A stretch of 64,000 nt of DNA from an uncultured bacterium (GTDB lineage: Bacteria > CSSED10-310 > CAZUFC01). A program made the position numbers and the translations under genes. The notes under the pieces were generated by a model. That model was not told the DNA's origin, searched no databases, and saw only the letters and a program-made list of their open reading frames with translations. The DNA is taken from contig CAZUFC010000004.1 of assembly GCA_964619725.1 (NCBI GenBank), positions 1-64,000 of the forward strand, written 5' to 3'. Shown here in pieces: positions 37,926 to 63,365 of this stretch. Position 1 is the first letter of the stretch. Every line of letters starts with the position of its first letter.

Positions 37926-37959
37926 ACTGCAAATATCTGTCCGGAGCTTGCCGTAAGCG

Positions 37960-40402: not shown

Positions 40403-40453
40403 CTAAAAATTTCAGTTCGGGAAATAATATTAATGCTGTGGGGAGCATTGAAG

Positions 40454-41515: not shown

Positions 41516-41806
41516 CGGGCGCAGCGCTTTTATGATCTGAATCAGAATAATTCCTTCTGCGAAACGCTGAGGCTCTCCACAGTCACTTCTTCGATTGGAA
41601 TAATGACCAACCTGCCGCCTGAAACTTCCCGGTTTTATGCTCAGAATTAACGATTGATCCGGATAAACGGGAGACTGCTGAATTACGGACAGAATCAAGA
41701 GAATAAACGACGGTCTTTCGCGGGTTCGGGCCCAGAACCAGGCGCTTTTTTCTTTCAATTGTCTGGTGATTCCTTTAATATTAACGGCTGGAGAATTCCG
41801 ATCGTC

Positions 41807-45201: not shown

Positions 45202-45217
45202 ACGAGGACATAATGAA

Positions 45218-47082: not shown

Positions 47083-48257
47083 AAAGGATTTTAATGATCG
47101 CTCCGGAACCTTTTTTTAAAATAAGGGGAACTCCTTTCAGCGTTTTTCATCGATGTCGCGCTTTAACTTCTCTGGGTTATGAAGTTGACCTTATAACTTA
47201 TCATCTTGGTGAAAACGTTGATATGAAAGGATTAAATGTCATCCGGTCGCCCCGGTTCAAATTTATCAAAAACGTCCCCATAGGATTTTCAATTCAGAAA
47301 ATGTTTCTGTGGTGGATATTGCTGGGAATGGCGTATCAGCGATTGAAACAATTTGATTATCTATGCGTTCATACTCACGAAGATGCCGTCTTTATGGGCG
47401 TTGTGCTCCGTAAAATGTTCGGGATAACCCATGTTTACGACATGCATTCCAGCCTGCCCCAGCAATTTGAAAATTATAAAACGACGAGTTCAAAAGCTTT
47501 TCTGAAATTCGCTTATATGATGGAGCGAATGGCTTTAAAAAATTCAGACGCGGTCATTACGATCTGTTCAAGCCTTTTTGAGCATGCAAAATCTGTAAAC
47601 AGGGAGAATTTTAAAGCTTTGATTGAAAATGTATCTTCAACGATCGGATGCAGCGCCGATGATGAACAGGTTAAAAATTTAAAAGAAGAATTGGGCATCA
47701 TAGGGGAAAAAGCGGTCATATATACAGGGACGCTGGAAAACAACCAAGGCATAGATTTGATGATAGATGCCTTTGCTGAAGCCGTCGATTTAATTCCTCC
47801 GGCCAAACTAATCATAGTCGGCGGAGAGCCTGAACAGGCAGAGTTCTACCGCAGATACGCCGAAAAGCGTAATATTGCAAACAAGGTTTTGCTGACCGGT
47901 AAAATGCCCGTTGAAACAATGGCGGTTTTTATGAAAATTGCTGACATCCTGGTTTCTCCACGGTCCATCGGCACTAACACGCCTTTAAAAATTTACACAT
48001 ATCTTGAGGCAGGCAAACCCATCCTCGCGACCAATCTCAAAACCCACACGCAGGTGCTTTCAAAAGATGACTCCTATCTTGCAAAACCGACGGTTGAGGG
48101 ATTAAAGGAAGGACTTGTCCGGCTGATGAATGATGAAAATTTGCGTTTCAAATTGTCGAAAGGAGCGCGAAGCTTATTTGAAAATTCTTACAGCGATGAA
48201 ATGTTCGTCGCTAAAACGAAGAAATTTTATGAAAAGGCGCTAAGTCTTATGAAATAA
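47079..48257 (+). CDS. GT4 family (GT-B) glycosyltransferase
   Basis: YTGTLE..QGIDL, ADILVSPR..GTNTPLKIYTYLEAGKPILAT. Confidence 0.9.
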   Translation: MKRILMIAPEPFFKIRGTPFSVFHRCRALTSLGYEVDLITYHLGENVDMKGLNVIRSPRFKFIKNVPIGFSIQKMFLWWILLGMAYQRLKQFDYLCVHTHEDAVFMGVVLRKMFGITHVYDMHSSLPQQFENYKTTSSKAFLKFAYMMERMALKNSDAVITICSSLFEHAKSVNRENFKALIENVSSTIGCSADDEQVKNLKEELGIIGEKAVIYTGTLENNQGIDLMIDAFAEAVDLIPPAKLIIVGGEPEQAEFYRRYAEKRNIANKVLLTGKMPVETMAVFMKIADILVSPRSIGTNTPLKIYTYLEAGKPILATNLKTHTQVLSKDDSYLAKPTVEGLKEGLVRLMNDENLRFKLSKGARSLFENSYSDEMFVAKTKKFYEKALSLMK

Positions 48258-48283
48258 TACCTAATGAAACGAATCAAACTGAT

Positions 48284-49174
48284 ATGGGTGAAAAGATGAA
48301 AAGAAAAACGCAGGTCTCGGCAAAAATTCGTGATGTCCAGCAAACTGAATTGCAGGCCCAAATAATGACCGAGAAAACCCCGGCTTTCAAAAAATATCAG
48401 AAACTAGTTATCGGTAATACGAAACTGGGCTCATTGTTGAAATATGAATTGATCACGCTGCTTTTCGGTAATCTTCCCGGCGCATTAGGCTACATTACCC
48501 GAAGACTTTTTTATCCTTTTTTGTTCGCCTCATGCGGAAAGGGCGTGACATTCGGCCGCAACATGACTATAAGGCATCCCAATAAAATAAAGATCGGCGA
48601 CTGCTGCGTTTTTGATGACTATAGCGTCCTGGATGCCAAGGGCGAATCGAATGCCGGAATAAACATCGGCAACAATGTCCTGATAGCTCGCAATACAGTT
48701 ATATCATGCAAGGGGGGCGACATCACGATCGGGGACAACTCCAATATTTCTCTGAACTGCATGATTCATTCGGAAAGTTCGGTGATACTAGGCCGCAACG
48801 TTTTAATAGCCGCGTATTGTTATATCATCGGCGGCGGCACGCACGATTTCGACCGCACGGATATACCGATCATTCAGCAGGGCAGTACATCCAAGGGGAT
48901 AATCATAGAGGAGAACGTCTGGTTGGCTGCCGGAGTAAAGATTCTGGACGGTTCGAAGATTGGAAAAGATTCGATTATCGGCACGGATTCGGTGGTGAAT
49001 AAGAGGATACCGGATTTTTCCATAGCGCTGGGGTATCCGGCCAAAGTCATAAAAAACCGGCTGAAACACAAGGTTACCCGCAGAGAGCGAGAGGAAACGC
49101 CAAAATCGCAAAGCGATGAGAGACAGAGCGATGAAGGTGATCCTGAAAAGAGTTCAGATGATTCAGCCGAATAA
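48284..49174 (+). CDS. Hexapeptide-repeat (LbH) acyltransferase
   Basis: [IL]G[DN]N hexapeptide repeats, IIEENVWL, GYPAKVIK. Confidence 0.9.
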   Translation: MGEKMKRKTQVSAKIRDVQQTELQAQIMTEKTPAFKKYQKLVIGNTKLGSLLKYELITLLFGNLPGALGYITRRLFYPFLFASCGKGVTFGRNMTIRHPNKIKIGDCCVFDDYSVLDAKGESNAGINIGNNVLIARNTVISCKGGDITIGDNSNISLNCMIHSESSVILGRNVLIAAYCYIIGGGTHDFDRTDIPIIQQGSTSKGIIIEENVWLAAGVKILDGSKIGKDSIIGTDSVVNKRIPDFSIALGYPAKVIKNRLKHKVTRREREETPKSQSDERQSDEGDPEKSSDDSAE

Positions 49175-49183
49175 GAGTTAGAT

Positions 49184-50158
49184 ATGAAGTTCAGCGACAG
49201 GCTATTTTTTTTCTTCAAGTTTTTTCTGTCCTTCGGCATCATCGCAGCTTTTTTTCTATGGGGAAGAGTAGACTGGGGAGAAACCTGGCAGGCCATAAGA
49301 AACGTCAATGTGAAGCTTTTGATTCTGGCCGCCTGCTTTCATATCCTTGGCCTTTTATTCAGTTCCATTAGATGGAAGAATCTGTTGGCCGCTCAGGGAT
49401 TACGCTACAATATCACTGAATTGTTTAAGTTTTATCTGGTTGGCGGTTTTTTCAATACTTTTCTGCCGGGGAGGGTCGGCGGAGATATTATGCGTATTCA
49501 TGACGTCAGCAAGAAAAAAGGATCGCATGTAGAACCGACGGCTGTCGTTCTTATCGAGAGAGGATCGGGAGTATTGACTTTGCTTGGATTAGCCGCTTTC
49601 GTCATGATAATGAATTTTGACGTCGGTTTTGACATCGCTCCGTTCCAGAAAAGTTTCTGGATTTCACTATTTTTTCTTTTATTAATCGTCGTTTTTTTCG
49701 TTATGTTATTTCATCCTTCAATGGTGAAAATATTATTGAATTTATTTGAGAAAAAATGGTTGAACAGAATGAAACCCTTTGCCGAAAAATTTTACCGCGC
49801 CGTCGTGATTTACAAAAACAGAAGACTGTATTTATTTAAAGCGTTGGCAGCAGGCGCCGCCCTCCAGGTAAATTACGTGATGCATTACTACGTTATTGGG
49901 CTTGCATTGGGGTTCCAGAGCATCAATCTCGCCTTTTATTTCTTTTTAATACCGGTTAGAGCGGTTCTGTTGATGACCCCGGTTTTCATTAACGGATTCG
50001 GATTACGGGAAGCCATAGACATATTTTTCTTTGAAAAAGCAGGAATATCAGCCGGAAAGGCGATATCATTTTCCTGGGTATCCGTCGCTATGACGATGGT
50101 TTATGGATTGATAGGCGGACTCGTGTACATTTTCAGGAAAGAAGCGAAAAGAATATGA
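49184..50158 (+). CDS. Lysylphosphatidylglycerol synthase TM-domain (flippase-like) protein
   Basis: RWKNLL, FFNTFLPGRVGGDIMR, IER, P...NGFGLRE. Confidence 0.85.
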   Translation: MKFSDRLFFFFKFFLSFGIIAAFFLWGRVDWGETWQAIRNVNVKLLILAACFHILGLLFSSIRWKNLLAAQGLRYNITELFKFYLVGGFFNTFLPGRVGGDIMRIHDVSKKKGSHVEPTAVVLIERGSGVLTLLGLAAFVMIMNFDVGFDIAPFQKSFWISLFFLLLIVVFFVMLFHPSMVKILLNLFEKKWLNRMKPFAEKFYRAVVIYKNRRLYLFKALAAGAALQVNYVMHYYVIGLALGFQSINLAFYFFLIPVRAVLLMTPVFINGFGLREAIDIFFFEKAGISAGKAISFSWVSVAMTMVYGLIGGLVYIFRKEAKRI

Positions 50159-51129
50159 TATTGATAACGGGGGCAAGCGGATTTATCGGGAGACATCTGT
50201 CGGAAACTCTGCTGCGATCTGGACATCAGGTGCGGGTTCTTTTGCGAAGGGAAACCGATGAGCATTTTTTTTCAGTGCAACCGACGGAAACAGTCAGGGG
50301 GGATTTAAGAAGCCGCGAAACAATAGACAAGGCTGTATCGGGCGTTGACGTCGTAATACATCTTGCTGCTGTTTTGGGACCGTCTCAGATTCGGGAGAAA
50401 ATCTTCTATGACGTTAACGTCCGGGCAACGGCTGATTTGCTGAAAACAGCACAAAAGTCAGGCGTGAGACAATTTATTTATGGGAGCACGGTCGGCGTTC
50501 TTGGAGACGTCGCCGGAGTCGTTGCGGACGAGTCGGCAGAATGCAGCCCGGAATCTGTTTATGAAAAGACGAAATGCGAGGCTGAATTTATCGTTCGAGA
50601 GGCTCAGAGTCAATCATTCAACATAACTGTAATTCGCCCGGCCTGGGTATACGGACCGGGAGACAGGCGAACCTTCAAGCTGATAAACGCCATTGCATCA
50701 AAGAAATTTATGTTTGTCGGGAAAGCCGGGAACCTGCAGCATCCCGTGTTTATTTCCGACCTTGTAACGGGCATAATGCTCTGTGTGAATAATGAGAGAG
50801 CTGCAGGAGAAATATATCATTTAGGTGGTCCGGAAATTGTAACAGTAAGAAAACTATGCACAACAGCGGCTTCCATCCTGGGAGTATCACTGCCGAGAGT
50901 TTCTCTGCCCTTATTTGCAGCTAAGATACTAGCCCGTTTTTCCGAAAAAATTTTTGATTTAGCTGGAAAAGAAGCGCCGGTAGACCGGGGAAAAGTTGAT
51001 TTTTTCGTCAAAAATCGCGCTTACAGCATAGAAAAGGCGAAAAGAGAACTGTCGTACAATCCGGAAACTTTTCTTGAACAGGGTATGACTGCTGCGATAA
51101 AGTGGTATCGGGAACAATGCTGGTTATGA
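50155..51129 (+). CDS. NAD-dependent epimerase/dehydratase (extended SDR)
   Basis: ITGASGFIG, HLAA, YEKTK (YxxxK), RPAWVYGPG. Confidence 0.92.
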   Translation: MILITGASGFIGRHLSETLLRSGHQVRVLLRRETDEHFFSVQPTETVRGDLRSRETIDKAVSGVDVVIHLAAVLGPSQIREKIFYDVNVRATADLLKTAQKSGVRQFIYGSTVGVLGDVAGVVADESAECSPESVYEKTKCEAEFIVREAQSQSFNITVIRPAWVYGPGDRRTFKLINAIASKKFMFVGKAGNLQHPVFISDLVTGIMLCVNNERAAGEIYHLGGPEIVTVRKLCTTAASILGVSLPRVSLPLFAAKILARFSEKIFDLAGKEAPVDRGKVDFFVKNRAYSIEKAKRELSYNPETFLEQGMTAAIKWYREQCWL

Positions 51130-51218
51130 ATGAACCGGTGAGTTGCTTTTTTAGAGGAACGAACGATGGAGTTCTTCAGCGCGTGGTTCTCAGAGGATCA
51201 GGAATGAGGTTAATATAG

Positions 51219-52682
51219 ATGGATATGCTTTTAATAGTACCGCCGGGAGGTTATTACGCGGAGAGGTGGCAAAAAGGCGTGCTGATGCCTCCTTTGGGAA
51301 TCGGTTATGTCGCTGCTGCGCTTGAAAAAGCAGGTTATGAAGCAGGCATTCTGGATGCCCATGTGAAGAAAATGTCCATGAAGGAGATTGCACGATATCT
51401 CGAAAATAATACTCCGAAATGCATAGGGTTGACATTTACGACAGAGACAAGATTTGAGGGATTTCAGACGGCTGCAGAGATCAAGCGAGTCCTGCCTGAT
51501 GTTCCGATTGTTGCAGGCGGACCTCATGTTTCGCTCGCGGCCGCAGACACGCTGGAACATATCCGCGAAATTGACTATGTCGTGGTGGGGGAAGGCGAGC
51601 TCACAGCAGTCGAATTAATGGATGTAATTCTAAAGAATCGAAAACCTGAGACGGTTGACGGCCTGGCTTACAGGCAAGAAGACAGGATTTTGTTTTCAAA
51701 ACCGCGGCAACCTATAAAGAATCTGGACGAAACTCCTTTTCCCGCCAGGCATCTTTATCCCATGAACGATTATAATTTTCAATTCGATGTTCCGGGGCGG
51801 GGTTCGATACCCTTCGGCAACATTATGACCAGCAGAGGTTGCCCATTTCATTGCAACTTCTGCGCCTCGCCCATAATGTGGGGCAAGAGATGCAGGCTTC
51901 GCTCGCCGGATAATATTGTCCGGGAGATTGAAGAAATCGCCGCTTCATATGATGCAAAAGGACTCTGGATATTTGACGATACTTTTAATTCGGTTCCCGA
52001 ACGGGTCGTTAAAATTTGCGATCTTATCATTGAGAGAAAATTAAATCTCTCCTTCTTCTGTGAAGTCCGGGTCGACAAAATGTCCAAACCCCTTTTAGAG
52101 AAAATGAAAGAAGCGGGTTGTTACTGTATCGGTTTCGGAGTCGAATCCGGCTCTCAGCGTATATTGGACGAAGTAATCAGAAAACATCTGGACCTCAAAA
52201 AAGTAGAACAATTGATCGAATGGTGCCTGGAACTCGACGTGAAACCAAATCCCTTCTACATCTTCAGTCACCCTACAGAAACGATGCAGGATGCCCAGCA
52301 AACCATGGACCTTATTCTCAAATATAAAGACAAAGCTCAAGCCAGCATGGCTTTGCTGCATGTTTACCCCGGAACGGCCCTGGAAAAAACCGCTTATGAA
52401 AAAGGCGTTTTGCCCAGAGACTTTTCTTGGACGCACAAAGATCGGAAAGAGGTCAAAACGTTGCCGTCAGCTCAGGGAAACGTCCCTATATTCCAGGATA
52501 AACTTACCTGGGATCAAATCAGCGGCCTCCTGTTCCAGTGGGCTGAACTGCAGAATTATCCCATATGGAGACATATCCCGAAAGTAATAAGAAGCGTTAA
52601 ATCTTTCGATGACTTTAAAAGATATGTGATTATGGGTAAAAATTTTTTGAAAAGGAAATTATCTTCTTCGAAAACGCATTAG
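51219..52682 (+). CDS. Cobalamin-binding radical SAM protein (4)
   Basis: PPLGIGYVAA, GGPHVS, GEGE, TSRGCPFHCNFC, DDTF, GVESG, YPGT. Confidence 0.93.
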   Translation: MDMLLIVPPGGYYAERWQKGVLMPPLGIGYVAAALEKAGYEAGILDAHVKKMSMKEIARYLENNTPKCIGLTFTTETRFEGFQTAAEIKRVLPDVPIVAGGPHVSLAAADTLEHIREIDYVVVGEGELTAVELMDVILKNRKPETVDGLAYRQEDRILFSKPRQPIKNLDETPFPARHLYPMNDYNFQFDVPGRGSIPFGNIMTSRGCPFHCNFCASPIMWGKRCRLRSPDNIVREIEEIAASYDAKGLWIFDDTFNSVPERVVKICDLIIERKLNLSFFCEVRVDKMSKPLLEKMKEAGCYCIGFGVESGSQRILDEVIRKHLDLKKVEQLIEWCLELDVKPNPFYIFSHPTETMQDAQQTMDLILKYKDKAQASMALLHVYPGTALEKTAYEKGVLPRDFSWTHKDRKEVKTLPSAQGNVPIFQDKLTWDQISGLLFQWAELQNYPIWRHIPKVIRSVKSFDDFKRYVIMGKNFLKRKLSSSKTH

Positions 52683-52710: not shown

Positions 52711-53238
52711 TTATTCCTCATCGATTTCTCTCAACCAGGCTCCGACTTTTTTCATCTCCCGCTCCCAATCGGACGATATGCGCAATTCAAGAAAGCGGTA
52801 GAAAAGGGCATCCATAATATTTATAAAAGTAGCGAAAGCATCGGCTCTGTCGTAAAAAACCTGTTCATCTTCTGTCGACAATGTTTTGGGTATTTTCATT
52901 GATTTGAATTGCAATTTTTCAGCATTGATCGTCAGATAACAGATTGATTCGTCAACATCAATTCGCAGGCGGGCTTCTTTGACCTTCTTTCCGTTTTTCA
53001 GCGCAAATTTGGCTTCCTGGATGTTCAATACTTCGCCTTTGAATGTCGATACTTCCTCGTCCAAACCCAAGACTATTTTGTTGTCGAAAAAAAGCGTAAA
53101 ATCGCCGACAGGCGATACCGTGAAGCTGCCTTCTCTGATTTCACTTTCAGCAAGTAACCAGGTAAGGAAATCGCTGCCCATGAATTCTTTTGCATCCTGA
53201 TCTTCGATATTGTGTATTTCATTTTCATTATCGTTCAT
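52711..53238 (-). CDS. RdgC-like protein, C-terminal-half type
   Basis: FMGSDFLTWL, EAKFALKNGKKVKEARL pattern; ATG 53238 after GGAG. Confidence 0.55.
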   Translation of the reverse strand: MNDNENEIHNIEDQDAKEFMGSDFLTWLLAESEIREGSFTVSPVGDFTLFFDNKIVLGLDEEVSTFKGEVLNIQEAKFALKNGKKVKEARLRIDVDESICYLTINAEKLQFKSMKIPKTLSTEDEQVFYDRADAFATFINIMDALFYRFLELRISSDWEREMKKVGAWLREIDEE

Positions 53239-53443
53239 TTTTATACTCCGAAAAGGAATCAAGCAATCACCCTTACAGCAGGCCGATTGTCATTTCCTCT
53301 GAAAGAAGGTATGAAAAACTGATGTATCGTAATTCCTACGTAAATCAAGCGTTTTTCCTTTGAAGCGAACTTTCATCCGTTTATTCTTTTCCTCTCCATA
53401 AAGCGGACTGCTCCATCATCAAACTCCCGGCATTTATAAAACA

Positions 53444-54055
53444 TTAAACAAACACTGTGGGTTCAGCCTGATCCCATTGTTCGATCGATTTACGCAAATC
53501 GCCGTTTTTCCAGAATAGAGAACGCATGCTTGCCTCATAGAGCTTGACGGAAAAAGAATCTTCAAACAGATTCATAAATTGTTCAATGACCTTCGAGGAA
53601 ACGGAGCCGAGAAGAACGAAGTTTTCCTGAAGGTTCCAGGCCATTTCAAAGAAATCTGGGACTGCGGGCATTTTTTTGAGTAAATTTCTTTCCACGCGTT
53701 CATTTATTTGTCTGTTTTCTTTAAAACCCGGCCGTTTTTTTCCGGTAGCTTTGATGAATTCATTGATAGCCAGTCTTCGTTCCAGTTTGAGAAGTTTGGG
53801 AGGTATTCTTCTTTTATCGATTCGCATCTGGAGTGTGAGAAATTCACCGTAGAAGATGTTCCCCGTATGAAACTCCGTACTGGAAAAATCATCGAACAGA
53901 GTCCATCCGCAGCTTTCTTTCAGTTCGCTGTCCGGCGGAATGGATTGAAAACGATTGTCATTGACTCCTTTTAACAAGGAATCGTGATAATTTTCAGGAA
54001 GCGCATCAAAAACAAAAAATCGGGTAAAACTGAATGTTCCTGTTAATAAGCTCAT
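53444..54055 (-). CDS. RdgC-like recombination-associated protein, N-terminal-half type
   Basis: SFTRFFV, F.......ESCGW, MRIDKRRIPPKLL...A, LLKKMP; AAGGAG RBS. Confidence 0.6.
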   Translation of the reverse strand: MSLLTGTFSFTRFFVFDALPENYHDSLLKGVNDNRFQSIPPDSELKESCGWTLFDDFSSTEFHTGNIFYGEFLTLQMRIDKRRIPPKLLKLERRLAINEFIKATGKKRPGFKENRQINERVERNLLKKMPAVPDFFEMAWNLQENFVLLGSVSSKVIEQFMNLFEDSFSVKLYEASMRSLFWKNGDLRKSIEQWDQAEPTVFV

Positions 54056-54087: not shown

Positions 54088-56025
54088 TCATTCTTTTTCA
54101 AGGTAAGAATAACCATTGAGGCCATCCTGGTAAATTTTGAGAAATTTGGCTGATTCTCTCAACGAGAGTTTTTTGGATTTAACGCCGGCTTCGACTGCAT
54201 TCCTTAATTTGTTGATGAGTGTTTCGACGTCGTACTGAACATATCTGAGCAGAGCTCCGACGGTATCGCCTGCGATAAATTTGTCAATGATATAATTCCC
54301 GTCTTTTAAGACCGATACATGTACCGTATTTGTGTCTCCGAAGAGGTTATGGAGGTCGCCGAGTATTTCCTGGTAAGCGCCGATAAGGAAGATGCCTAAA
54401 TGATATCCTCTGTCGTCGGGATAATGCAGGCTCAATGTGTCCTTGACTCCGCGCAGGTCAATGAATTGCTCGATTTTTCCATCCGAATCGCATGTGATGT
54501 CTACTAATGTGGTCTTGCAATCGGGTTGCTCATCCAAACGGCTTATAGGCATGATGGGAAATAACTGGTCGATAGCCCAATGATCCGGTAATGATTGGAA
54601 TACGCTGAAATTACAGATATAAGTATCTGCCAGAAAACGTTCCAATCCTGATAATTCTTCAGGGATATAATCCAGCGCCTGAACGATTTTCAAAATTTTC
54701 ACGCAAATTTGCCAGAACAGGTCCTCAGCTATTGCCCGTTCCTCAATATTCAAAAGCCCCAGATTAAATCTGGCCAACGCATCGTCTTTGTAATGCATCG
54801 CATCATGGAACGACTCCTGGTAATTTTTTATTGTAATATTTTTTAGTACATCCTTCATGTCGATTAATAAGTCGGGGGGATTGTCCGGAAAATGCAAATT
54901 GCTGAATCGTCCGGAATAACTGGAAACGTCTGTTACGTCGACCAGCAGAACAGAATGGTGCGCAACCAGAGCTCTGCCGCTTTCCGAGATAATATGGGGA
55001 TGAGGAACAGAGCGTCTTTCGCATTCTTCGCAGACGGACCACACTATGTCTGCGGCATACTCCTGCATTGAATAATTCGCGCTTGATGCGAAATTGGTTT
55101 TGCTGCCGTCATAATCAATGGCCAAACCTCCTCCGACGTCAAAATAATTCAGCGGCGCTCCGAGACGATATAATTCGGAGAAAATCCGTACGGCTTCCCC
55201 CATCGCTTCCTTTATGCTTCTTATGGCAGTAATTTGCGAACCCAGATGAAAGTGCAACAGCTTAAAGATATGCAACATGTCCCTTTCGCGCAAGATTTGA
55301 ACGATTTGCAGTATTTCAACAGTCGTTAATCCGAATTTTGAAAATTCACCTCCTGATCCTTCCCATTTTCCCGCACCTCGTGAAGAAAGCTTGCATCTTA
55401 CCCCAATTGTGGGCTCCACATTCAACTTTTTCGCACAGGATAAAATCAAATCCATTTCATTGAGTTTTTCCACGACGAGTATAATATTTTTGCCGATTTT
55501 CGATGCCAGAAGCGCTGTTTCTATGTATTCCTGATCTTTGTAGCCATTGCAGATGATAAGGGCTTTTTCGTTTTCCATAAGGGCGACGGCTATAAGAAGT
55601 TCAGCTTTGCTGCCCGATTCCAGGCCGAAGTTATATTCCTTCCCGAAATCCAGTATGTCTTCCACAACTTGCCGGCTCTGGTTGACCTTAATCGGATAAA
55701 CCCCCATGTATTCACCCTTGTAAGAAGCTTCATCCATTGATTTTCTGAAAGATTGGTAAAGCTCTTTGACTCTTTGTTTCAATATGTCCGTAAAACGAAG
55801 GAGCACCGGAGTATTGATGTCCCGTTGCATTAATTCTTGCACGAGGAAAGAAAGATCGAGCTCGTATTGCATGTTTTTGTAAGGTCTTACGACAGCATGC
55901 CCCTGCTCATTGATGGAAAAGAATCCCTGCCCCCAATCTGTGACTCTGTAAAAATCTTTTGAATCCTGAACGGTCCATTTTTTTTTGAGTTTCTTTTCTT
56001 TCTTCTTGATATGAGCCTTTTTCAT
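54088..56025 (-). CDS. speA: Biosynthetic arginine decarboxylase
   Basis: YPIKVNQ (PLP Lys), GLESGSKAEL, CNGYKD, HFHLGSQI, DVGGGL, ESGRA, DITCDSDG, GAYQEILGDLHNLFG; AAGGAGGT RBS before ATG 56025. Confidence 0.96.
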   Translation of the reverse strand: MKKAHIKKKEKKLKKKWTVQDSKDFYRVTDWGQGFFSINEQGHAVVRPYKNMQYELDLSFLVQELMQRDINTPVLLRFTDILKQRVKELYQSFRKSMDEASYKGEYMGVYPIKVNQSRQVVEDILDFGKEYNFGLESGSKAELLIAVALMENEKALIICNGYKDQEYIETALLASKIGKNIILVVEKLNEMDLILSCAKKLNVEPTIGVRCKLSSRGAGKWEGSGGEFSKFGLTTVEILQIVQILRERDMLHIFKLLHFHLGSQITAIRSIKEAMGEAVRIFSELYRLGAPLNYFDVGGGLAIDYDGSKTNFASSANYSMQEYAADIVWSVCEECERRSVPHPHIISESGRALVAHHSVLLVDVTDVSSYSGRFSNLHFPDNPPDLLIDMKDVLKNITIKNYQESFHDAMHYKDDALARFNLGLLNIEERAIAEDLFWQICVKILKIVQALDYIPEELSGLERFLADTYICNFSVFQSLPDHWAIDQLFPIMPISRLDEQPDCKTTLVDITCDSDGKIEQFIDLRGVKDTLSLHYPDDRGYHLGIFLIGAYQEILGDLHNLFGDTNTVHVSVLKDGNYIIDKFIAGDTVGALLRYVQYDVETLINKLRNAVEAGVKSKKLSLRESAKFLKIYQDGLNGYSYLEKE

Positions 56026-56401
56026 TTCGTCGACCTCCTTGTCACTCATATCTGAGGATTGGGAAATGAGAGGACGATATTAACATAATAACGAGGATTT
56101 CCAATTAAAAAACTGAAATTTCCCAGTGAAGTATTCGTAACAGGAATCAGGAAAGTTTCATTTCGCCTGATGAGGATCAGTTGCCTGGAGAATTCGAATA
56201 TGTTTTTTGAAAAATGGACTCCTTTTGATGTAATTGATAGATCAGCCGCAGGTTCTATAATCAGGTCGACTCCGCAAAACAGAATTCCTGTGAAAAAAAT
56301 CTTTTCATTTGAAGACAGAAAGATATCTTTTTGCTGCGAGCCTTCCTGATTACAGCCACGCTGCAGTCCATTATTTCATACCGCCGGCATTGGTTTTCCG
56401 A

Positions 56402-56800
56402 CTATTTTTTTCCCTTTCGGAACACGAATCCATAAGTTTTATTTCCGGCGACTTCCCGAATCACGTCGGTTTCAGCTATCAGCTTATCTCCTGTTTTGAC
56501 GTTTGCGTCTCTAATCTGTCCCAATGCTTTTATGCCATTGTCGAATTCCACAATACCGAAGGTTAAAGATTTGGTTTCAAAGCCTTCGGGAAGAGCGAAA
56601 ACCTGAGAATATGCCAGTAATTTGCATTTTCCTTTCAGAGGCACCTTGATGAAATCATCATAAATAACTTCTGAGGGGTCCCGTCGGGTTCTGCATTTTT
56701 CGCACACCATTGGTGCGGGGTAGTAGAGTTTTTCGCATTTCGGGCATTTATAGGCATAAACATTTTTGTCTACAGCATAGAGGTCTTGAATTTCGTACAT
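56402..56800 (-). CDS. DUF35 (Zn-ribbon + OB-fold) thiolase partner protein
   Basis: CPKC..YYP....CEKC, G.L.AYS....P.GF......GIVEFDNG; directly downstream of the thiolase. Confidence 0.88.
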   Translation of the reverse strand: MYEIQDLYAVDKNVYAYKCPKCEKLYYPAPMVCEKCRTRRDPSEVIYDDFIKVPLKGKCKLLAYSQVFALPEGFETKSLTFGIVEFDNGIKALGQIRDANVKTGDKLIAETDVIREVAGNKTYGFVFRKGKK

Positions 56801-56818
56801 CTCGATTCTCCTCTGTTG

Positions 56819-57994
56819 TTATTTAGCTAATATCGTCGTCAGTACGTTGTTTCCGAATCCTCCGAAATTGACGGCAAGTCCATACTTCGGATTCTTGACC
56901 TGTCTTCCTTTTTCAGCTTCGCCTCTCAACTGTTTTACAAGTTCGTGTATTTGAGAGACGCCGGTAGCGCCCACTGGATGTCCTTTTGCTTTTAAGCCGC
57001 CGGAAGCGTTGACGGGAATCTTGCCGTTAACTTCCAAATCGCCGCGTTCGATGGCGGCTTTGGCTTTGCCCTTCGCGAAAAAACCGACCTCTTCACTGAT
57101 GGCTGCTTCCAGAATAATAAAGGCGTCATGAAGTTCTGCCAGCGAGATGTCTTTTGGTCCTATTCCAGCCATTTTATATGCCTTTTCAGCAGCCGTCCGG
57201 ACGGCTTTTAAATCCAGAGGGTCTTTCCTGTTATGGACGCAATGAGTATCGGTTGCCTGTCCGATTCCTGCTACACGGATCGGTTTCTTTTTAAATCGGT
57301 CCGCTACGTCCATGCCGCACATGATGACTGATGCTGAGCCGTCGGAAACAGGACATATACCGTAAAGCCTTAACGGGTCCGCCATGATCGGATTGGCGGA
57401 TTCTTTATGCGGATTATTCAATATGCCGTCCAACGATGCTTGTTGCTCCACATGGCTGAAAGGATTAAGATCAGCGTTCCTGTGTGCTTTTTCTCCTAAT
57501 ATGGCTAAATGCTTCTCCTTCAGACCATATTTTTCCATGTACATTCTTGTGAACATCCCTGCGAATCCCGAAAGAGTTATGCCGTACGGATATTCAACTT
57601 CCGGATGAGTCAACGTGGAAATAAAATCAGTGCTTCGCCAGCCGGTCGTTTCGCGCATGCGTTCGCCGCCCGTAACCATCACGATGTCCGCCATGCCTGA
57701 CGCGATAGCCATGTATCCGCATTTGATCGCAGAAGCGCCCGATGCGGGACCATTCTCAACGGTTTCCGCCATAGCGGGTTCAAGAAATATCCGGCTCACC
57801 AGAGATGATGCGATGCCTGTCTGATGATTAAGAAACGCCGAGCCCATGTTTGCAACGAATACCTGATCGATTCCCTTGTCGATTCCTGCATCTTCCATTG
57901 CCTCCAACGAAGACCAGGCCAATATGTCCACAAGATCATAATCCAATCTGCCGAATTTTATATGACCGATTCCTACTATTCCAACTTCTCTCAT
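56819..57994 (-). CDS. SCP2-type thiolase-fold protein lacking the nucleophilic Cys
   Basis: CPVSDGSA, ELHDAF, VNASGGL..KGHPVGATG, NFGG; VENGPASG where VExACASG is expected. Confidence 0.9.
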   Translation of the reverse strand: MREVGIVGIGHIKFGRLDYDLVDILAWSSLEAMEDAGIDKGIDQVFVANMGSAFLNHQTGIASSLVSRIFLEPAMAETVENGPASGASAIKCGYMAIASGMADIVMVTGGERMRETTGWRSTDFISTLTHPEVEYPYGITLSGFAGMFTRMYMEKYGLKEKHLAILGEKAHRNADLNPFSHVEQQASLDGILNNPHKESANPIMADPLRLYGICPVSDGSASVIMCGMDVADRFKKKPIRVAGIGQATDTHCVHNRKDPLDLKAVRTAAEKAYKMAGIGPKDISLAELHDAFIILEAAISEEVGFFAKGKAKAAIERGDLEVNGKIPVNASGGLKAKGHPVGATGVSQIHELVKQLRGEAEKGRQVKNPKYGLAVNFGGFGNNVLTTILAK

Positions 57995-58665
57995 CGTTTA
58001 AACTCCGGAATTTGCGGATACTCATCAGGCGGAATGAGATTATCCGCGGTTTTAAGTAAATCAGCCGGAACCGGACGAGTCCCGGATAACAGTCTTGATC
58101 TGGCTTTATCGAACAGTTCTTTCGTCAGAACGTAAGAAGGCACGCCCCCCAGTTCATGCTGAAATTCCATACGAGGTTCAAGTTGATACTCTATCATCCA
58201 TCTTTTGAATCCGATAAAACTTTCCGCAACGATATATACTTCTTCCTGGTTGAGAAAATCCATGTGATATTCCATTTTGGCGGCAAACATCATCGCTCCG
58301 CAACGCAACCCTCTCCGTATCGTCATTGTGTGATAACTCATTCCCCGAGCCTCATCGATCATTCTCCCGTTTACTATGCTCGCAATAACTCCATCAATGG
58401 ACCCGACCAAACAATAAGGGTCCCTCACCCGATACAGCAACTGCCCTAAAAGCTCGCCGTACATCCTGGTTGCGACAATGTCATAAAAGTCCCTTCTTAC
58501 TTTCATTAAAGGACTGACTGTTTCCAATAAAGCGGGTATGTCTTCGCTTGTCGCTTGACGGATTACCAATTTTTCGCCGGATGCCAATGTAATGAATTTA
58601 GGCGGATACGGCGTCATCTTCCTTGACGGCGGTCTCAGTTTTAATTCTAAATCCTCAATAAACAT
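57991..58665 (-). CDS. GNAT-like hypothetical protein
   Basis: LVIRQATSEDIPALL and RRGLRCGA (acetyl-CoA-binding motif A-like); GGAGGT RBS before ATG 58665; 4-nt overlap with the thiolase. Confidence 0.65.
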   Translation of the reverse strand: MFIEDLELKLRPPSRKMTPYPPKFITLASGEKLVIRQATSEDIPALLETVSPLMKVRRDFYDIVATRMYGELLGQLLYRVRDPYCLVGSIDGVIASIVNGRMIDEARGMSYHTMTIRRGLRCGAMMFAAKMEYHMDFLNQEEVYIVAESFIGFKRWMIEYQLEPRMEFQHELGGVPSYVLTKELFDKARSRLLSGTRPVPADLLKTADNLIPPDEYPQIPEFKR

Positions 58666-58772
58666 GAATTGTAAACCTCCCTTCCATGAAGCCGTTAACA
58701 ATAGCATGCCGAAACTAACTACGCAAGGCATAAGCTCAAATATGCTAATATTTTTTCTCCCTCTTTTCAATC

Positions 58773-58801
58773 TTGACATACGAACACTTTGATACTATAC
58801 T
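58773..58801 (+). promoter_or_regulatory. Sigma70-type promoter of pckG
   Basis: TTGACA-17 nt-TATACT. Confidence 0.7.
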
Positions 58802-58909
58802 CCCGAATCTTGATGTGATTTCCGTAATTACTTACGAAATTACATTTTGTACCGTTTTAAGTTTTATCGTCCTCTGACTTTTCAGTTAAGAGACAACCGG
58901 AGGTAATAA

Positions 58910-60784
58910 ATGGAAAAAGAGATGGAGCTATTGAAGGAAAAGTGTGGAGAGAAAAATTACCGGAAATTGATGGAGATCGATAATCCTGATATTCATCAAT
59001 TTGTAGCTCGATGGACTGCTCATTGCAATCCAGATAAGGTTTTCGTTTGTACTGATTCATCGGAAGATTTACAGTTTGTCAGGCAGGCGGCGATCGACAG
59101 CGGAGAAGAGAAGGAATTGGCGACAAAAGGGCACACAATTCATTTTGATGGTTATTACGATCAAGCCAGAGATAAAGAGCACACCAAGTTTTTACTTCCA
59201 AAGGACGTGGATTTGGGTCCGAACATTCAGGCAATAGACAGAGATGAAGGATTAAAAGAGATTCACGGCATTATGAAAGACATCATGAAGGGCCATATGA
59301 TGTTCGTCCGTTTTTTTGCTCTGGGACCTACGAATTCTGAGTTTACTCAACCCAGTCTCCAGTTGACCGATTCGGCATACGTCGCCCATAGCCTGGATTT
59401 ACTTTATCGACAAGGTTACGAGGAATTCAGGAGACTGGGAAGAAAGGCGAGGTTCTTCAAAGTCGTTCACAGTCAGGGTGAGTTGGAAAATTATGTGAGC
59501 AAGAATATTGAGCAGAGACGCGTTTACATAGACTTGAAAGATGAATTAGTATACAGCGCCAACACTCAATATGGAGGAAACACGCTGGGGCTGAAAAAAC
59601 TCTCCATGCGTCTCGCCATCAATAGAGGGGCAAAAGAAGGTTGGCTGACGGAACATATGCTGCTCATGGGCATTCATGGGCCGAATCAACGGAAAACCTA
59701 TTTTACTGGAGCTTTTCCCTCCTTGTGCGGAAAAACCTCGACATCAATGATGGAAGGCGAAACAATCGTAGGCGACGACATTGCCTACCTACGTCGAATC
59801 GACGGGGAAATAAAAGGCGTTAACGTGGAATCGGGCATGTTCGGTATCATTATGGGCGTCAATGAAAAAGACGATCCTCTTATCTGGAAAGCCTTGCACG
59901 CGCCTAATGAAATCATCTTCTCGAACATATTGGTAACCAAAGATGGTGGAGTTTACTGGATCGATAAAGGAACGGAAATGCCTTCTGAAGGAATCAATCA
60001 TTCAGGAGCTTGGAAGCCGGGTAAGATAGACAAAGATGGAAATGAAATCCCGCCGTCTCACAGAAACGCCAGATTCACTTTGAAACTCGAATACCTGGAT
60101 AATTTAGACCCCACCCTGAACGATCCCGCGGGCGTGAAGGTCGGAGGAGCCATATACGGGGGACGAGATTCGGATACATGGATGCCCATCAGAGAAGCAT
60201 TCAACTGGCAACACGGCATCATCACCATCGCCGCCTCTCTCGAATCGGAAACCACCGCTGCGACTCTGGGAAAAGAAGGCGTCCGAAAATTCAATCCTAT
60301 GTCTAACCTTGACTTTCTATCCGTCCCTATCGGTAAATACATTCAGATGAACCTTGACTTTGTTGAGGGCGTGGAGAATCCGCCTTTGATCTTTGGGGTG
60401 AACTACTTCCTCAAAGATAAGAACGGAGATTTCCTCAATGCAAAAACAGACAAAGCTATCTGGTTGAAATGGGCGGAATTGAGAGCCCACCAGGATGTGG
60501 AAGCCATTGAAACGCCGATCGGATACATTCCGAAATACGAAGACCTGAAAAGACTCTTCAAAGACATACAGTCCAAAGAATACTCAAAAGATGATTATGA
60601 AAAGCAGTTTAAGCTGAGAATTCCTGAGAATCTGGCGAAAATTGACCGAATTTTGAACATTTACCAGAACAAAGTTAAAGATGCGCCGCAAGTCTTTTTC
60701 GAAGTCCTGAACAAGGAAAAAGAAAAACTGATAAAAGCAAGAGAGAAATACGGAGATTACGTGGTTCCGGATGCCTTTTTGTAA
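58910..60784 (+). CDS. pckG: Phosphoenolpyruvate carboxykinase (GTP)
   Basis: YGGNTLGLKK, EGWLTEHM, GAFPSLCGKT, VGDDIA, HRNARFT, YGGR, NPMS. Confidence 0.95.
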   Translation: MEKEMELLKEKCGEKNYRKLMEIDNPDIHQFVARWTAHCNPDKVFVCTDSSEDLQFVRQAAIDSGEEKELATKGHTIHFDGYYDQARDKEHTKFLLPKDVDLGPNIQAIDRDEGLKEIHGIMKDIMKGHMMFVRFFALGPTNSEFTQPSLQLTDSAYVAHSLDLLYRQGYEEFRRLGRKARFFKVVHSQGELENYVSKNIEQRRVYIDLKDELVYSANTQYGGNTLGLKKLSMRLAINRGAKEGWLTEHMLLMGIHGPNQRKTYFTGAFPSLCGKTSTSMMEGETIVGDDIAYLRRIDGEIKGVNVESGMFGIIMGVNEKDDPLIWKALHAPNEIIFSNILVTKDGGVYWIDKGTEMPSEGINHSGAWKPGKIDKDGNEIPPSHRNARFTLKLEYLDNLDPTLNDPAGVKVGGAIYGGRDSDTWMPIREAFNWQHGIITIAASLESETTAATLGKEGVRKFNPMSNLDFLSVPIGKYIQMNLDFVEGVENPPLIFGVNYFLKDKNGDFLNAKTDKAIWLKWAELRAHQDVEAIETPIGYIPKYEDLKRLFKDIQSKEYSKDDYEKQFKLRIPENLAKIDRILNIYQNKVKDAPQVFFEVLNKEKEKLIKAREKYGDYVVPDAFL

Positions 60785-61136: not shown

Positions 61137-61523
61137 ATGAAAGAATTATTTCAAACAGCTGACTGGAAATCGGAAAAACACGCGCCTGTCATTACGGTAC
61201 GCGAATCCGCTGAAAAAGGGGAAATCCTGGATATAGAATTAAGCGTCGGCAAAGAGATACCGCATCCCAATACCACTGAACATCACATTTCGTGGATCGA
61301 ACTTTATTTCCATCCCGAAGGTGAGAAATTCCCTTATGCCCTGGGCAAATTTGAGTTTTCATGTCACGGCGCTTCAGTCCAGGGGCCTGACTCGAGTACT
61401 GTATATACTCATCCCAAAGTCGTTTGCTCTATGAAAACGGAAAAGTCCGGAAGCATCCACGCAATGGCTTATTGCAACATCCATGGGCTGTGGAGCAGTG
61501 TTGCGGAATTGAAGGTTAAATAA
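61137..61523 (+). CDS. sor: Class II (1Fe) superoxide reductase / neelaredoxin
   Basis: EKHAP, HPNTTEHHI.WI, YCNIHGLW; no desulforedoxin domain. Confidence 0.93.
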   Translation: MKELFQTADWKSEKHAPVITVRESAEKGEILDIELSVGKEIPHPNTTEHHISWIELYFHPEGEKFPYALGKFEFSCHGASVQGPDSSTVYTHPKVVCSMKTEKSGSIHAMAYCNIHGLWSSVAELKVK

Positions 61524-61630
61524 ATTACGTCGTCGAACTCCTGTGAATTCGATAAAGCCGTTCGAACAAACGGTTTCAACGAATTGAACGATTCAGGAGG
61601 AAATGTAGAGTTCATTTTTAAAGGAGGAAA

Positions 61631-62149
61631 TTGATCGTGCTTAAAGAAAATATGGAAAAAGCATTGAATGAACAGATTAACGCTGAATTGTTTTCAGCGT
61701 ACCTTTATCTTTCGATGTCAGCTTATTTTGAATCAATTGATCTGGCGGGATTCGGAAACTGGATGAAACTTCAGGCTCAGGAAGAAGCGGAACATGCTAT
61801 GAAAATATACGATTTCGTCAATCAAAGAGGTGGCCGAGTCATCCTTACGGCGATAGAAGCCCCACAGAGTGAATGGAAGTCCCCTTTGGACGCTTTCGAG
61901 GATGTATACAGTCACGAGCAGAAAGTGACGAAAATGATTCACGATCTCGTAGATTTGGCGCTGCAAGAGAAAGATCACGCCTCCAATAATTTTTTACAAT
62001 GGTTCGTATCAGAACAGGTTGAAGAAGAAGACTCAGCTCAGACAGTCCTTCAGAAGCTCAAACTCATCGGAGATAAAGGGCATGGTCTTTTTATGATCGA
62101 CAGAGAATTGGGAAACAGGAAGGCAGAGTCTGGCTCTGAAGAGGAATAG
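61631..62149 (+). CDS. ftnA: Non-heme ferritin
   Basis: [43 protein letters not shown]. Confidence 0.95.
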
Positions 62150-62318
62150 GTATTCCGGATTTTTAGCTGACGGTTTTCTTTTATAGTTCGGAATCGCATG
62201 AGTTCCGAATTTCTGTAAGTTTAGTGAATCGACGTGTGAATTATTGTATCAGTTAAGAGGGAACGAAGGATATGTTTGTTTTGGATGACGTCTCAATTGC
62301 TGAAAAGGAGTTTTTATA

Positions 62319-62783
62319 ATGAAAGAATTCAATTCGACCGAAGAAATTTTGGATTTTGCGGTACAGGAGGAAGAAAAAGCGTTTCAGTTTTACAAGAGTC
62401 TGGCTGAGAAAACTGAAAAACCCTGGATGAGGGAAGTTTTTATGGAATTTGCTCGTGAAGAGGCGTCTCACAAAGAAAAATTGCTCCAGGTTAAAGAAGG
62501 GAAGCAGGTACTGGTTGATGTTAAGGGAAAAGTAATGGATTTAAAAATAGCCGATTATCTTGTAGAAATGGAACCGAACCCGGAAATGGATTACCAGCAA
62601 GCCTTAGTCGTTGCCATGAAAAAAGAAAAAGCTGCATTTAAATTGTATTCGGACCTGGCGGGAAGAATAGATGATCCGGAACTCAAGTCAGTTTTCCTGT
62701 CATTGGCTCAGGAAGAGGCAAAACATAAATTGAAATTTGAAATTGAATATGATGATAATTTCCTTACAGAAAAAAAATGGTAG
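62319..62783 (+). CDS. Rubrerythrin-like ferritin-family di-iron protein
   Basis: Two E..A..FY/LY...LA.EE..H repeats (EEASH, EEAKH). Confidence 0.9.
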   Translation: MKEFNSTEEILDFAVQEEEKAFQFYKSLAEKTEKPWMREVFMEFAREEASHKEKLLQVKEGKQVLVDVKGKVMDLKIADYLVEMEPNPEMDYQQALVVAMKKEKAAFKLYSDLAGRIDDPELKSVFLSLAQEEAKHKLKFEIEYDDNFLTEKKW

Positions 62784-62876
62784 GCCTGAGCAGAGCCTTT
62801 CGCGGGATACCATTGATCATGATATCGGAACTTAAATTAAATCGTTCCACATCATTTATTGCAAAGGAGCTCCATC

Positions 62877-63365
62877 ATGGTCGAAGATAAAAAAGCGGAG
62901 ACGGGTGATAAGGCCCCTGATTTCGTATTGCAAAACGCGGAAGAACAGGAAATACGCTTGAGCGATTTGGTCGGAAAATGGATTACGCTTTATTTTTATC
63001 CTAAAGACAATACGAGCGGGTGCACGTTGGAAGCCGTAAATTTTACCAATGCTTTGGATGAATTTAAGAAACTTGGCGGCATAATCATCGGCATCAGTCC
63101 GGATTCCTGTCAGAGTCACAGGAATTTTAAAGCGAAACATGACTTAAAAGTCGTGCTGTTGAGCGATCCTGATAAATCCATAATAAAGCGTTATGGGGTT
63201 TGGGCATTGAAGAAAATGTACGGTAAAGAATATTACGGCGTCGAAAGAAGCACCTTTCTTATTGATCCCGACGGAAAAATAGCTCATGCCTGGCGAAAAG
63301 TAAAAGTTAAAGGGCATGTGGAAGAAGTGAAAGAAAAATTAAGGGAGTTGGTCGGCAAGGCTTAA
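62877..63365 (+). CDS. bcp: Bacterioferritin comigratory protein (peroxiredoxin Q)
   Basis: LYFYPKDNTSGCTLEA, GISPD, LLSD, ERSTFLID; AAGGAG RBS before ATG 62877. Confidence 0.93.
   Translation: MVEDKKAETGDKAPDFVLQNAEEQEIRLSDLVGKWITLYFYPKDNTSGCTLEAVNFTNALDEFKKLGGIIIGISPDSCQSHRNFKAKHDLKVVLLSDPDKSIIKRYGVWALKKMYGKEYYGVERSTFLIDPDGKIAHAWRKVKVKGHVEEVKEKLRELVGKA

Follow-up and report, generated by a model that had tools for sequence, protein, structure and literature searches.

Complexes in which a thiolase-fold protein and a DUF35 protein work together with a third partner constitute a small and recently recognised class of channelling systems, represented by the archaeal thiolase complex with HMG-CoA synthase (HMGCS), the Friedel-Crafts acylase PhlABC, BbsAB and the Ltp2 and Sal aldolases. 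According to PMC6392133, the archaeal thiolase/HMGCS/DUF35 complex binds coenzyme A (CoA) at the interface of all three proteins, and PhlABC is a heteromer of the thiolase-like PhlC, the DUF35 protein PhlB and a third subunit, with a loop of the DUF35 protein lining a shared cavity. Here we describe an operon from an uncultured bacterium (GTDB lineage CSSED10-310; GenBank assembly GCA_964619725.1), in which three minus-strand open reading frames (ORFs) encode in a row a GNAT-fold protein, a thiolase-like protein and a DUF35 protein (table 1). It lies in the first 64,000 nucleotides of contig CAZUFC010000004.1, the stretch of DNA analysed here and hereafter called the window. The operon would add to the class a member with a GNAT-fold partner and with a thiolase subunit unable to form an acyl-enzyme. 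Our preferred interpretation, which we advance tentatively and rate somewhat below an even chance, is that the trio would be a single non-thiolytic, CoA-dependent heteromeric enzyme, converting the malonyl-type remainder of oxidatively opened uracil into an acetyl unit and CO2.

In its architecture the system appears, by analogy, to resemble the complexes of a thiolase, a DUF35 protein and a partner, except that the fold of the partner is new. With the archaeal thiolase/HMGCS/DUF35 complex it shares the subfamily type of its thiolase (the best match among solved proteins, obtained with phmmer, is 7yvy at 7.5e-74, with 6esq at 1.9e-66), a stand-alone Cys4 DUF35 protein, a third subunit encoded in the operon, a ternary complex, which is predicted here, and possibly the coupling of an unfavourable to a favourable step across adjoining sites. 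It differs in having Pro in place of the catalytic Cys, a GNAT fold instead of the HMGCS/KAS III fold, a putative docking insertion of seven residues and a catabolic rather than a mevalonate context. It also differs in having no HMG-CoA synthase in the module operon, since the HMGCS of the same genome (G000) belongs to a separate, canonical HMG-CoA synthase/thiolase/DUF35 operon on contig C53 (about 48352-50969; locus L083). There the HMG-CoA synthase scores 532 bits (cut-off 244) and the thiolase 517 bits (PRK06064 cut-off 420), the latter having its Cys in 'ESACASG' as well as HDCF. The C53 operon is followed by ORFs that look biotin-carboxylase-like and carboxyltransferase-like, by inspection of their first residues alone.

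The steroid side-chain aldolases Ltp2-ChsH2(DUF35) and Sal-Shy likewise combine a thiolase fold with a DUF35 partner and dispense with an acyl-Cys mechanism. However, as described in PMC12329534, they carry a Tyr (YDHF/YDCY) at the position of our His, act on steroid CoA esters and have their DUF35 domain fused to the preceding hydratase, whereas the DUF35 protein considered here is a free protein of 132 residues and no hydratase is found among the recurrent neighbours of its gene. PhlABC is similar in its heteromeric make-up but differs in that PhlC requires Cys88, that PhlA is KAS III/HMGCS-like and that the complex is biosynthetic (PMC6392133). The closest solved relative without the Cys is ST0096 of Sulfolobus tokodaii (PDB 4yzo, 9e-63; so named in PMC6392133), a thiolase-like protein of unknown function in which the site reads 'vdntSGsg', with Ser rather than Pro; it is without the insertion, has no known GNAT partner and, being absent from our tree (see below), is placed with the Ser type by its motif alone.

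One genome per species was scanned with a degenerate pattern, which recovered at least 599 stretches, at least 580 of them confirmed. The family is thus not rare, its carriers amounting to at least 580 species that include acetogenic Clostridium and Moorella species, Spirochaetota, Acidobacteriota and candidate phyla. The best 80 loci of these were kept for comparison. In all 80, the thiolase gene lies directly downstream of the GNAT gene, and in 77 the DUF35 gene comes next, the contigs of the other three ending inside the thiolase gene. Hence the three genes are one conserved module in the order GNAT-thiolase-DUF35, and the co-occurrence of ENGPASG-bearing thiolases with the GNAT-like family, which the first-pass annotation of the window had put forward as a check, is found throughout the sample. 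In the window itself, the GNAT and thiolase-like genes overlap by 4 nucleotides (57991-57994), and a gap of 18 nucleotides (56801-56818), with GGAG ahead of the DUF35 ATG, separates the thiolase-like from the DUF35 gene. The longest frame of the GNAT ORF spans 57991-58779, and its start was set at 58665 by homologues of 213-240 residues (about 224). ORF coordinates and homologue lengths thereby agree with the overlap, gap and start site originally annotated.

Its domains place the thiolase-like protein in the thiolase superfamily, with matches to Pfam Thiolase_C_1 (1e-41, 142 bits) and Thiolase_N (2.3e-17, 63.7 bits) above their cut-offs. Its scores against curated subfamilies lie below the respective cut-offs, with 375 bits against 420 for NCBIfam PRK06064 and 313 against 600 for the equivalog AcCoTHIOL_METTL; further matches among solved proteins are PhlC (8.8e-24) and 6ok1, a 'lipid-transfer protein' (5.9e-21). 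The protein thus falls outside the curated thiolase subfamilies by score and lacks the defining catalytic features of thiolases, which are Cys83, the nucleophile at the N-terminus of the active-site helix, and the acid/base Cys of HDCF. At the first site the DNA sequence gag aat ggt ccc gca tcg ggc translates to E-N-G-P-A-S-G, and the phmmer alignment sets 'vengPasg' opposite 'ieaaCasg' in 7yvy and 'veaaCasg' in 6esq, which confirms the replacement of the acyl-accepting Cys by Pro83 that had been noticed at first reading. The HDAF and GHP histidine motifs, described at the same time as retained, are indeed present as His289 and His339 in the window and were found, each in 72 of 73, in the full-length ORFs of the loci. 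An alignment of 24 sequences with 73% mean column identity across phyla shows no variation at either histidine, at N81 and E77 or in the GGFG loop; the conserved histidines and loop argue for a working active site and not a relic.

The substitution of the Cys is fixed. N-G-P-A occupies the site in all 120 listed homologues (63-100% identity), of which 108 have [VI]ENGPASG, 11 have V[SG]NGPASG and a single one shows a deletion immediately after the motif, and G-P-A-S-G is present in the 79 loci that cover the site (79/79; 80 loci of named species). Because Pro takes the place of Cys in 120/120 homologues and 79/79 loci, the classic ping-pong mechanism with an acyl-Cys is excluded at the level of sequence, as first supposed. 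The search for a Cys at this site in close homologues, by which decay or an error would have been recognised, returned none among the 120 listed. Sequencing error or decay in a single genome could be discarded on these grounds, and also on account of the codon CCC being at least two base changes away from a Cys codon (TGY). The protein has Cys residues at positions 92, 214, 226 and 252. As alternative nucleophile, Cys92 was rejected, for it is not conserved and is Val in relatives; as relocated nucleophile, Cys214, which is invariant in the family (24-sequence alignment), was rejected since the same position is Cys, Ser or Ala in relatives that bear Cys83.

Compared with 1.84 billion representatives clustered at 50% identity, among which it amounts to about one full-length representative, the family is sharply set apart, its own representative scoring 489 bits (58% identity) and the next one 311 bits. 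Across the query and its 150 best representatives, aligned together, the position of Pro83 holds Cys in 86, Ser in 20, Pro in 15, Asp in 9, Glu in 3, Gly in 2, Asn in 2, Ala in 1 and Thr in 1, with a gap in 12. The Cys-less state is therefore real but not the exception that the first-pass annotation implied, as 53 of the 151 aligned sequences carry a residue other than Cys, and members without the Cys are common in this DUF35-associated branch of thiolases. A tree of the 134 full-length rows (FastTree, midpoint root; 17 short or gapped rows of the 151 dropped) groups 10 Pro and 15 Ser tips in one clade of 25 with a support of 0.998. An insertion of seven residues (193-199) is carried, among the 151 aligned sequences, only by P0001, P0241 and P0243. 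More distant thiolase-like clades (P0242, P0244, P0255, P0261 and P0262) also have Pro at the Cys site, without this insertion.

The partner of 224 residues has no sequence match in Pfam, NCBIfam or the PDB, and is 57-79% identical across phyla. Its AlphaFold (AF2) model has a pLDDT (predicted local distance difference test) of 90.3 and finds 8gxj/1yre as best Foldseek match (E 1.5e-7, probability 1.00), while a full scan with VIA-align gives Z 13.4 with 1yre_A (158 residues aligned; root mean square deviation 2.9). All 50 listed fold matches are GNAT-type acetyl- or acyl-transferases, actual or putative. On the evidence of these models we are confident that the partner has a GNAT fold, a mixed beta sheet in which beta4 and beta5 splay apart, and the label 'GNAT-like' given at first reading is upheld by fold in spite of the missing family match. 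Look-alikes retrieved with a language model are clusters of 'putative N-acetyltransferase' without names, and public records call the protein 'hypothetical' or 'N-acetyltransferase domain-containing'. Motif A of GNAT proteins, Q/R-x-x-G-x-G/A, forms the loop that binds the pyrophosphate of CoA. Its counterpart in the family is R-G-L-R-x-G-A, in which G119, R121 and G123 are invariant and Arg stands where the central Gly would be expected. Putative candidates for a catalytic dyad of His and Ser/Thr, taken from the sequence alignment, are the invariant residues S110, H112, T113, H134 and H170.

The third protein deserves the name DUF35, given to it at first reading, by virtue of its match to zf-ChsH2 (25.4 bits; Pfam cut-off 23.2), which corresponds to a rubredoxin-like Cys4 zinc ribbon, although the OB domain scores below its cut-off (OB_ChsH2_C, 14 bits against 27.1). 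The four Cys residues C19, C22, C33 and C36 are invariant in 18 DUF35 sequences. Modelling of the trimeric complex was another check that had been proposed. In predictions with the three proteins and the GNAT protein as scored partner, the ipSAE score was 0.78 (runs 0.76, 0.82 and 0.78) versus 0.00 for the best of three controls; among solved complexes 116 of 157 attain this mark, and among mismatched pairs 2 of 215. At least 95% of the contacts are common to the runs, and the partner has a pLDDT of at least 84. We know of no comparable complex with a GNAT partner, so that the score is unlikely to stem from a solved structure remembered by the predictor. In the predicted interface, the GNAT subunit (residues 25-30, 119-128, 150-161, 191-196 and 217, hence including the beta4-alpha3 loop, 119-125) contacts mainly the thiolase subunit (residues 117-119, 183-202 and 210-211) and in addition residues 75-77 of the DUF35 protein. 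The predictions thus support docking of the GNAT protein on the thiolase and DUF35 subunits as a ternary complex, in which the seven-residue insertion may be the docking element. The earlier conjecture, in which the GNAT-fold protein occupies the place that HMGCS or PhlA has in other complexes, is backed by this prediction and by the gene order of the 80 loci.

The neighbours of the module in the window are the genes for arginine decarboxylase (speA) and GTP-dependent phosphoenolpyruvate carboxykinase (pckG), as identified with Pfam. The divergent pckG had been taken as a hint of central carbon metabolism, a suggestion that comparison does not sustain, for a homologue of pckG or speA is found in none of the 80 loci, and the conserved neighbours are genes for the catabolism of N-heterocycles, probably of uracil. 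Within 8 kb of the module (tblastn, at least 40% query coverage), the 80 loci contain FdrA in 54, AllG in 48, a cyclase-family hydrolase in 48, the FAD, FeS and Mo subunits of a xanthine dehydrogenase (XDH)-type enzyme in 48, 42 and 38, respectively, an NCS2 permease in 26, PucR in 21, AllH in 17 and carbamate kinase in 8. At least one catabolic neighbour (permease and PucR left out) is present in 64 of the 80 loci and in 53 of the 59 that are 10 kb or longer; in two genomes of the Moorella group, AllG lies just past the fetched flank.

The genome of the window (9.17 Mb in 344 contigs, completeness 90.9%, contamination 6.5%) has these genes on other contigs, with FdrA and AllG on C156, the cyclase (62% identity) on C2, XDH on C159 and carbamate kinase on C22. 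Its phylum has 14 species genomes in the collection, and the GNAT protein and AllG occur in the same four of them, together on one contig in the three carriers other than the window genome. The pathway genes that are scattered in the window genome are clustered in these three relatives. A similar association is seen among Clostridiaceae, where the GNAT protein was detected in 11 of 188 scored genomes, all 11 with AllG within 5 kb, and AllG in 34 of 194 (13 and 7 genomes, respectively, remained unscored, and related genomes are not independent).

FdrA, AllG and AllH are the subunits of AllFGH, which PMC11326118 describes as the oxamic transcarbamylase of E. coli that phosphorolyses the N-acylurea oxalurate to carbamoyl phosphate and oxamate. 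The carbamoyl phosphate then yields ATP through carbamate kinase. Homologues of all three subunits and of the kinase, which in E. coli form part of the anaerobic allantoin branch, are the most constant neighbours of the module. In E. coli, however, the oxamate product is not handled by a thiolase/GNAT module. Since 23 of the 34 AllG-bearing Clostridiaceae genomes are without the module, the latter marks a distinct variant of AllFGH chemistry.

Several results bear on the substrate, which from sequence and context is most likely a pyrimidine, namely uracil. 'Uracil permease' is the top family for all nine permeases tested, with scores above the cut-off in four, of 418-428 against 477 in three and near 254 in two. 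On contig C159 of the window genome (7437-13462; locus L082 3438-9463), two further genes come after those for the Mo, FAD and FeS subunits of the XDH-type enzyme. One encodes a cytosine-deaminase-like hydrolase (400 bits, cut-off 438) and the other a uridine phosphorylase, which passes its cut-off (294.5 bits against 280.3). Both enzymes would make uracil, and this operon, away from the module, looks like a feeder for uracil oxidation. The module of locus L007 is arranged head to head with the best counterparts of the C159 XDH (46% identity) and hydrolase (61%). None of the curated cut-offs for xanthine dehydrogenase is reached by the XDH subunits. In the spirochaete loci L070 and L080, an amidase-signature gene is located between the cyclase and GNAT genes, and the best solved relatives of its product are eight entries of malonamidase E2 (2e-46, 162 bits; next family 136 bits). 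Work on Rhodococcus has reportedly established an aerobic oxidative route for uracil that proceeds through uracil dehydrogenase, barbiturase and ureidomalonase. The results for permeases, C159 feeder genes, XDH and amidase fit an oxidative route of this kind, from uracil through barbiturate and ureidomalonate to carbamoyl phosphate and malonamate.

In the pathway that we propose, the XDH-type molybdenum enzyme would hydroxylate uracil to barbiturate, and a hydrolase, either of the cyclase family or another amidohydrolase, would open the ring to form ureidomalonate. The AllFGH-like enzyme would phosphorolyse the latter to carbamoyl phosphate and malonamate, and carbamate kinase would convert carbamoyl phosphate to ATP, in what would amount to a phosphorolytic, ATP-yielding version of the oxidative uracil route. 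This scheme leaves a malonyl-type C3 substrate without an enzyme, and the module is a conserved enzyme without a substrate; we have paired the two, so that the module would handle the remaining malonyl-type C3 unit, be it malonamate, malonate or ureidomalonate.

The chemistry can be envisaged as follows. In thiolases, the two catalytic histidines polarise the carbonyl of a (thio)ester and, with the Gly-rich loop, stabilise the enolate of the thioester, and an enolate that arises by loss of CO2 needs neither nucleophile nor base, as in the ketosynthase-type decarboxylases with Cys replaced by Gln. GNAT folds, for their part, can act as malonyl-CoA decarboxylases (PMC3701320). As described there, malonyl-CoA decarboxylase and the loading GNAT domain of CurA use the fold beyond N-acetylation and on malonyl thioesters. 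This would fit the proposed substrate class, but our protein shows no sequence match to these enzymes, which rely on a dyad of His and Ser/Thr. Given the capacity of GNAT proteins for handling or decarboxylating acyl-CoA and the presence of both histidines in the Cys-less thiolase, we propose an acyl transfer followed by decarboxylation. The GNAT subunit would shift the acyl group between N or O (of an amide, ureide or acid) and the thiol of CoA, and the thiolase subunit would decarboxylate the malonyl thioester via an enolate held by His289 and His339. Loss of CO2 would leave an acetyl unit, probably as acetyl-CoA; no acyl group would become covalently bound to the enzyme, and the CoA ester would pass by channelling from one site to the adjoining one. 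The shared CoA interface of the archaeal thiolase/HMGCS/DUF35 complex offers a possible model of such coupling. The two steps may also be divided differently between the subunits, and the product may be acetate instead of acetyl-CoA.

A more specific version, which we consider unlikely as it stands, is that the module would be the last enzyme of a hitherto undescribed, energy-conserving anaerobic pathway of uracil oxidation, converting malonamate to acetyl-CoA. The uphill transfer of the acyl group from N to S by the GNAT subunit would then be coupled, via a shared CoA site, to irreversible decarboxylation by a thiolase fold devoid of both cysteines. If true, the reaction type would be new for both folds, and each uracil would provide a second substrate-level ATP beside that from carbamoyl phosphate.

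A number of observations weigh against the interpretation of the trio as a CoA-dependent enzyme of uracil catabolism. The reaction and the pathway intermediates are a proposal built on sequence and context. The 80 loci were taken for their closeness to the query and do not represent the 580 evenly, and the catabolic neighbours are absent from the window itself and from 6 of the 59 long loci. Five of the nine permeases score below the cut-off of the uracil permease family, as do the cytosine-deaminase-like proteins with respect to theirs (three of three), and the best matches of the XDH subunits are still xanthine dehydrogenase models, albeit below cut-off (538 against 780, and 506 against 780 in C159). 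The substrate could be purine-derived (an acylurea), as the substrate for which AllFGH has been characterised is oxalurate derived from allantoin, and as PucR takes its name from the catabolism of purines. Regarding the proteins, HDAF is found also in Cys-bearing relatives such as 7yvy, and a missing HDCF Cys does not therefore set the family apart. Of the partner's 50 listed fold matches, the nearest are N-acetyltransferases and none is malonyl-CoA decarboxylase or CurA, a result by which that family is not excluded. Moreover, the atypical G-L-R-x-G-A loop sits within the modelled interface, so that binding of CoA by the GNAT subunit is no more than putative.

The alternative that deserves most attention, even if we judge it rather improbable, has the GNAT subunit as sole catalyst, an N-acyltransferase tagging or untagging an amine or ureide intermediate with an acyl group supplied by acyl-CoA, with the thiolase and DUF35 proteins reduced to a non-catalytic scaffold or a CoA-holding pseudoenzyme. 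The GNAT-type transferases that make up the whole list of 50 fold matches would agree with this explanation, as would the disappearance of both thiolase cysteines and the view that two of the three PhlABC subunits are needed just for assembly (PMC6392133). It accounts poorly, however, for a thiolase subunit conserved like a working enzyme, with both histidines, N81, E77 and the GGFG loop invariant, and for the alteration, within the predicted interface, of the canonical CoA-binding loop of the presumed catalyst.

The first-pass annotation suggested a Cys-independent acyl-CoA aldolase or retro-aldol lyase similar to Ltp2-ChsH2(DUF35) or Sal-Shy, and a thiolase fold associated with DUF35 and devoid of the nucleophilic Cys, as in Ltp2, would be in keeping with this idea, as would the match to 6ok1. 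Yet Ltp2 and Sal need the Tyr base of their YDHF/YDCY motif (PMC12329534), and since this catalytic Tyr motif is missing from our family, in which HDAF is nearly universal, we regard an Ltp2-type aldolase as quite unlikely. Furthermore, no hydratase or MaoC gene accompanies the module in the 80 loci, and the pathway context offers no beta-hydroxyacyl-CoA.

Barbiturate, being a 1,3-dicarbonyl ring akin to phloroglucinol, brings to mind a PhlABC-like reaction, in which a CoA-independent C-C acyl transfer or retro-Claisen cleavage would take place on barbiturate and the GNAT protein would replace PhlA. The make-up of the two systems is the same (thiolase-like protein, DUF35 and third subunit), PhlC is among the matches to solved proteins, and the predicted contact of DUF35 residues 75-77 with the third subunit recalls the PhlB loop 74-87 that closes the shared cavity (PMC6392133). 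Such a reaction seems very unlikely, though, in a protein with Pro at the site through which PhlC works as acetyl-Cys88, the Cys-to-Ala variant of PhlC being inactive according to the same source, and an acylated barbiturate would serve no catabolic logic. Lastly, an ordinary thiolase relying on another cysteine, or a decayed or mis-sequenced gene, is scarcely credible despite the invariance of Cys214, in view of the fixed Pro and its codon, the variability of position 214 in Cys83-bearing relatives, the unconserved Cys92 and the separate canonical operon on C53.

We found no paper on the GNAT/thiolase/DUF35 module or on an anaerobic oxidative route for uracil in open-access PMC and bioRxiv, although one could exist in a subscription journal. 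By word search, two recent papers on anaerobic purine degradation (PMC12507026 and bioRxiv 10.1101/2025.04.24.650524) make no mention of thiolase, DUF35, cyclase, FdrA, GNAT or acetyltransferase. The module is probably embedded in a new pathway: the company it keeps, which consists of an XDH-type hydroxylase, a carbamoyltransferase of AllFGH type and carbamate kinase, points to a complete route for the fermentation of a pyrimidine. How strict anaerobes oxidise uracil rather than reduce it becomes directly testable in cultivable organisms. The name 'acetyl-CoA acetyltransferase', under which the thiolase-like proteins are found in public records, would need correcting.

Table 1. Position of the module and of its principal features in the window.
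Feature	Position	Strand	Basis
GNAT-fold protein, 224 aa, first gene of the operon	57991..58665	-	ORF list and homologue lengths; no Pfam/NCBIfam family
SCP2/archaeal-type thiolase-like protein without nucleophilic Cys, 391 aa	56819..57994	-	Pfam Thiolase_C_1, Thiolase_N
Codon CCC, Pro83, at the site of the acyl-accepting Cys	57746..57748	-	DNA reading and alignment to solved thiolases
Seven-residue family-specific insertion, about residues 193-199; predicted GNAT docking surface	57398..57418	-	Alignment of query and 150 representatives; complex prediction
His289 of HDAF; the Cys of SCP2-type HDCF is Ala here	57128..57130	-	PDB alignments; invariant in 24 sequences
His339 of GHP, retained catalytic His of thiolases	56978..56980	-	PDB alignments; invariant in 24 sequences
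DUF35 protein, 132 aa, Cys4 zinc ribbon and putative OB fold; probably links the GNAT and thiolase subunits as adaptor	56402..56800	-	zf-ChsH2 match
Intergenic region common to the operon and the divergent pckG; presumed operon promoter	58666..58909	.	ORF list

In the intergenic region shared with pckG, promoter-like hexamers are not enriched (6 versus 5.6 expected in shuffles); terminator-like sites are likewise no commoner than in shuffles, and no riboswitch or other RNA matches Rfam in 55800-59200 at E up to 1.

Among the sampled loci, L029, L036, L037, L038 and L067 (and L048 and L053) have, upstream of PucR and the module, genes for an ammonium-transporter/P-II fusion, the beta subunit of a Na+-translocating decarboxylase and a beta-lactamase-family protein. 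The loci with this decarboxylase subunit (OAD_beta, 522 bits) next to the module are one group of Bacillota metagenome-assembled genomes. We considered the subunit as possible support for a malonyl-CoA decarboxylase and dropped it, no carboxyltransferase partner being encoded beside it.

Elsewhere in the window, two ORFs of 183 and 203 residues follow downstream of speA (52711-54055, minus strand), neither of them matching Pfam at E 1e-5. The long row of plus-strand genes that extends over 36426-52682 has at its end a gene for a B12-binding radical SAM protein (51219-52682, plus strand; Pfam). On the other side of the module, the plus strand encodes desulfoferrodoxin, ferritin, rubrerythrin and an AhpC/TSA peroxiredoxin (61137-63365; Pfam), an oxidative-stress row that is typical of anaerobes.

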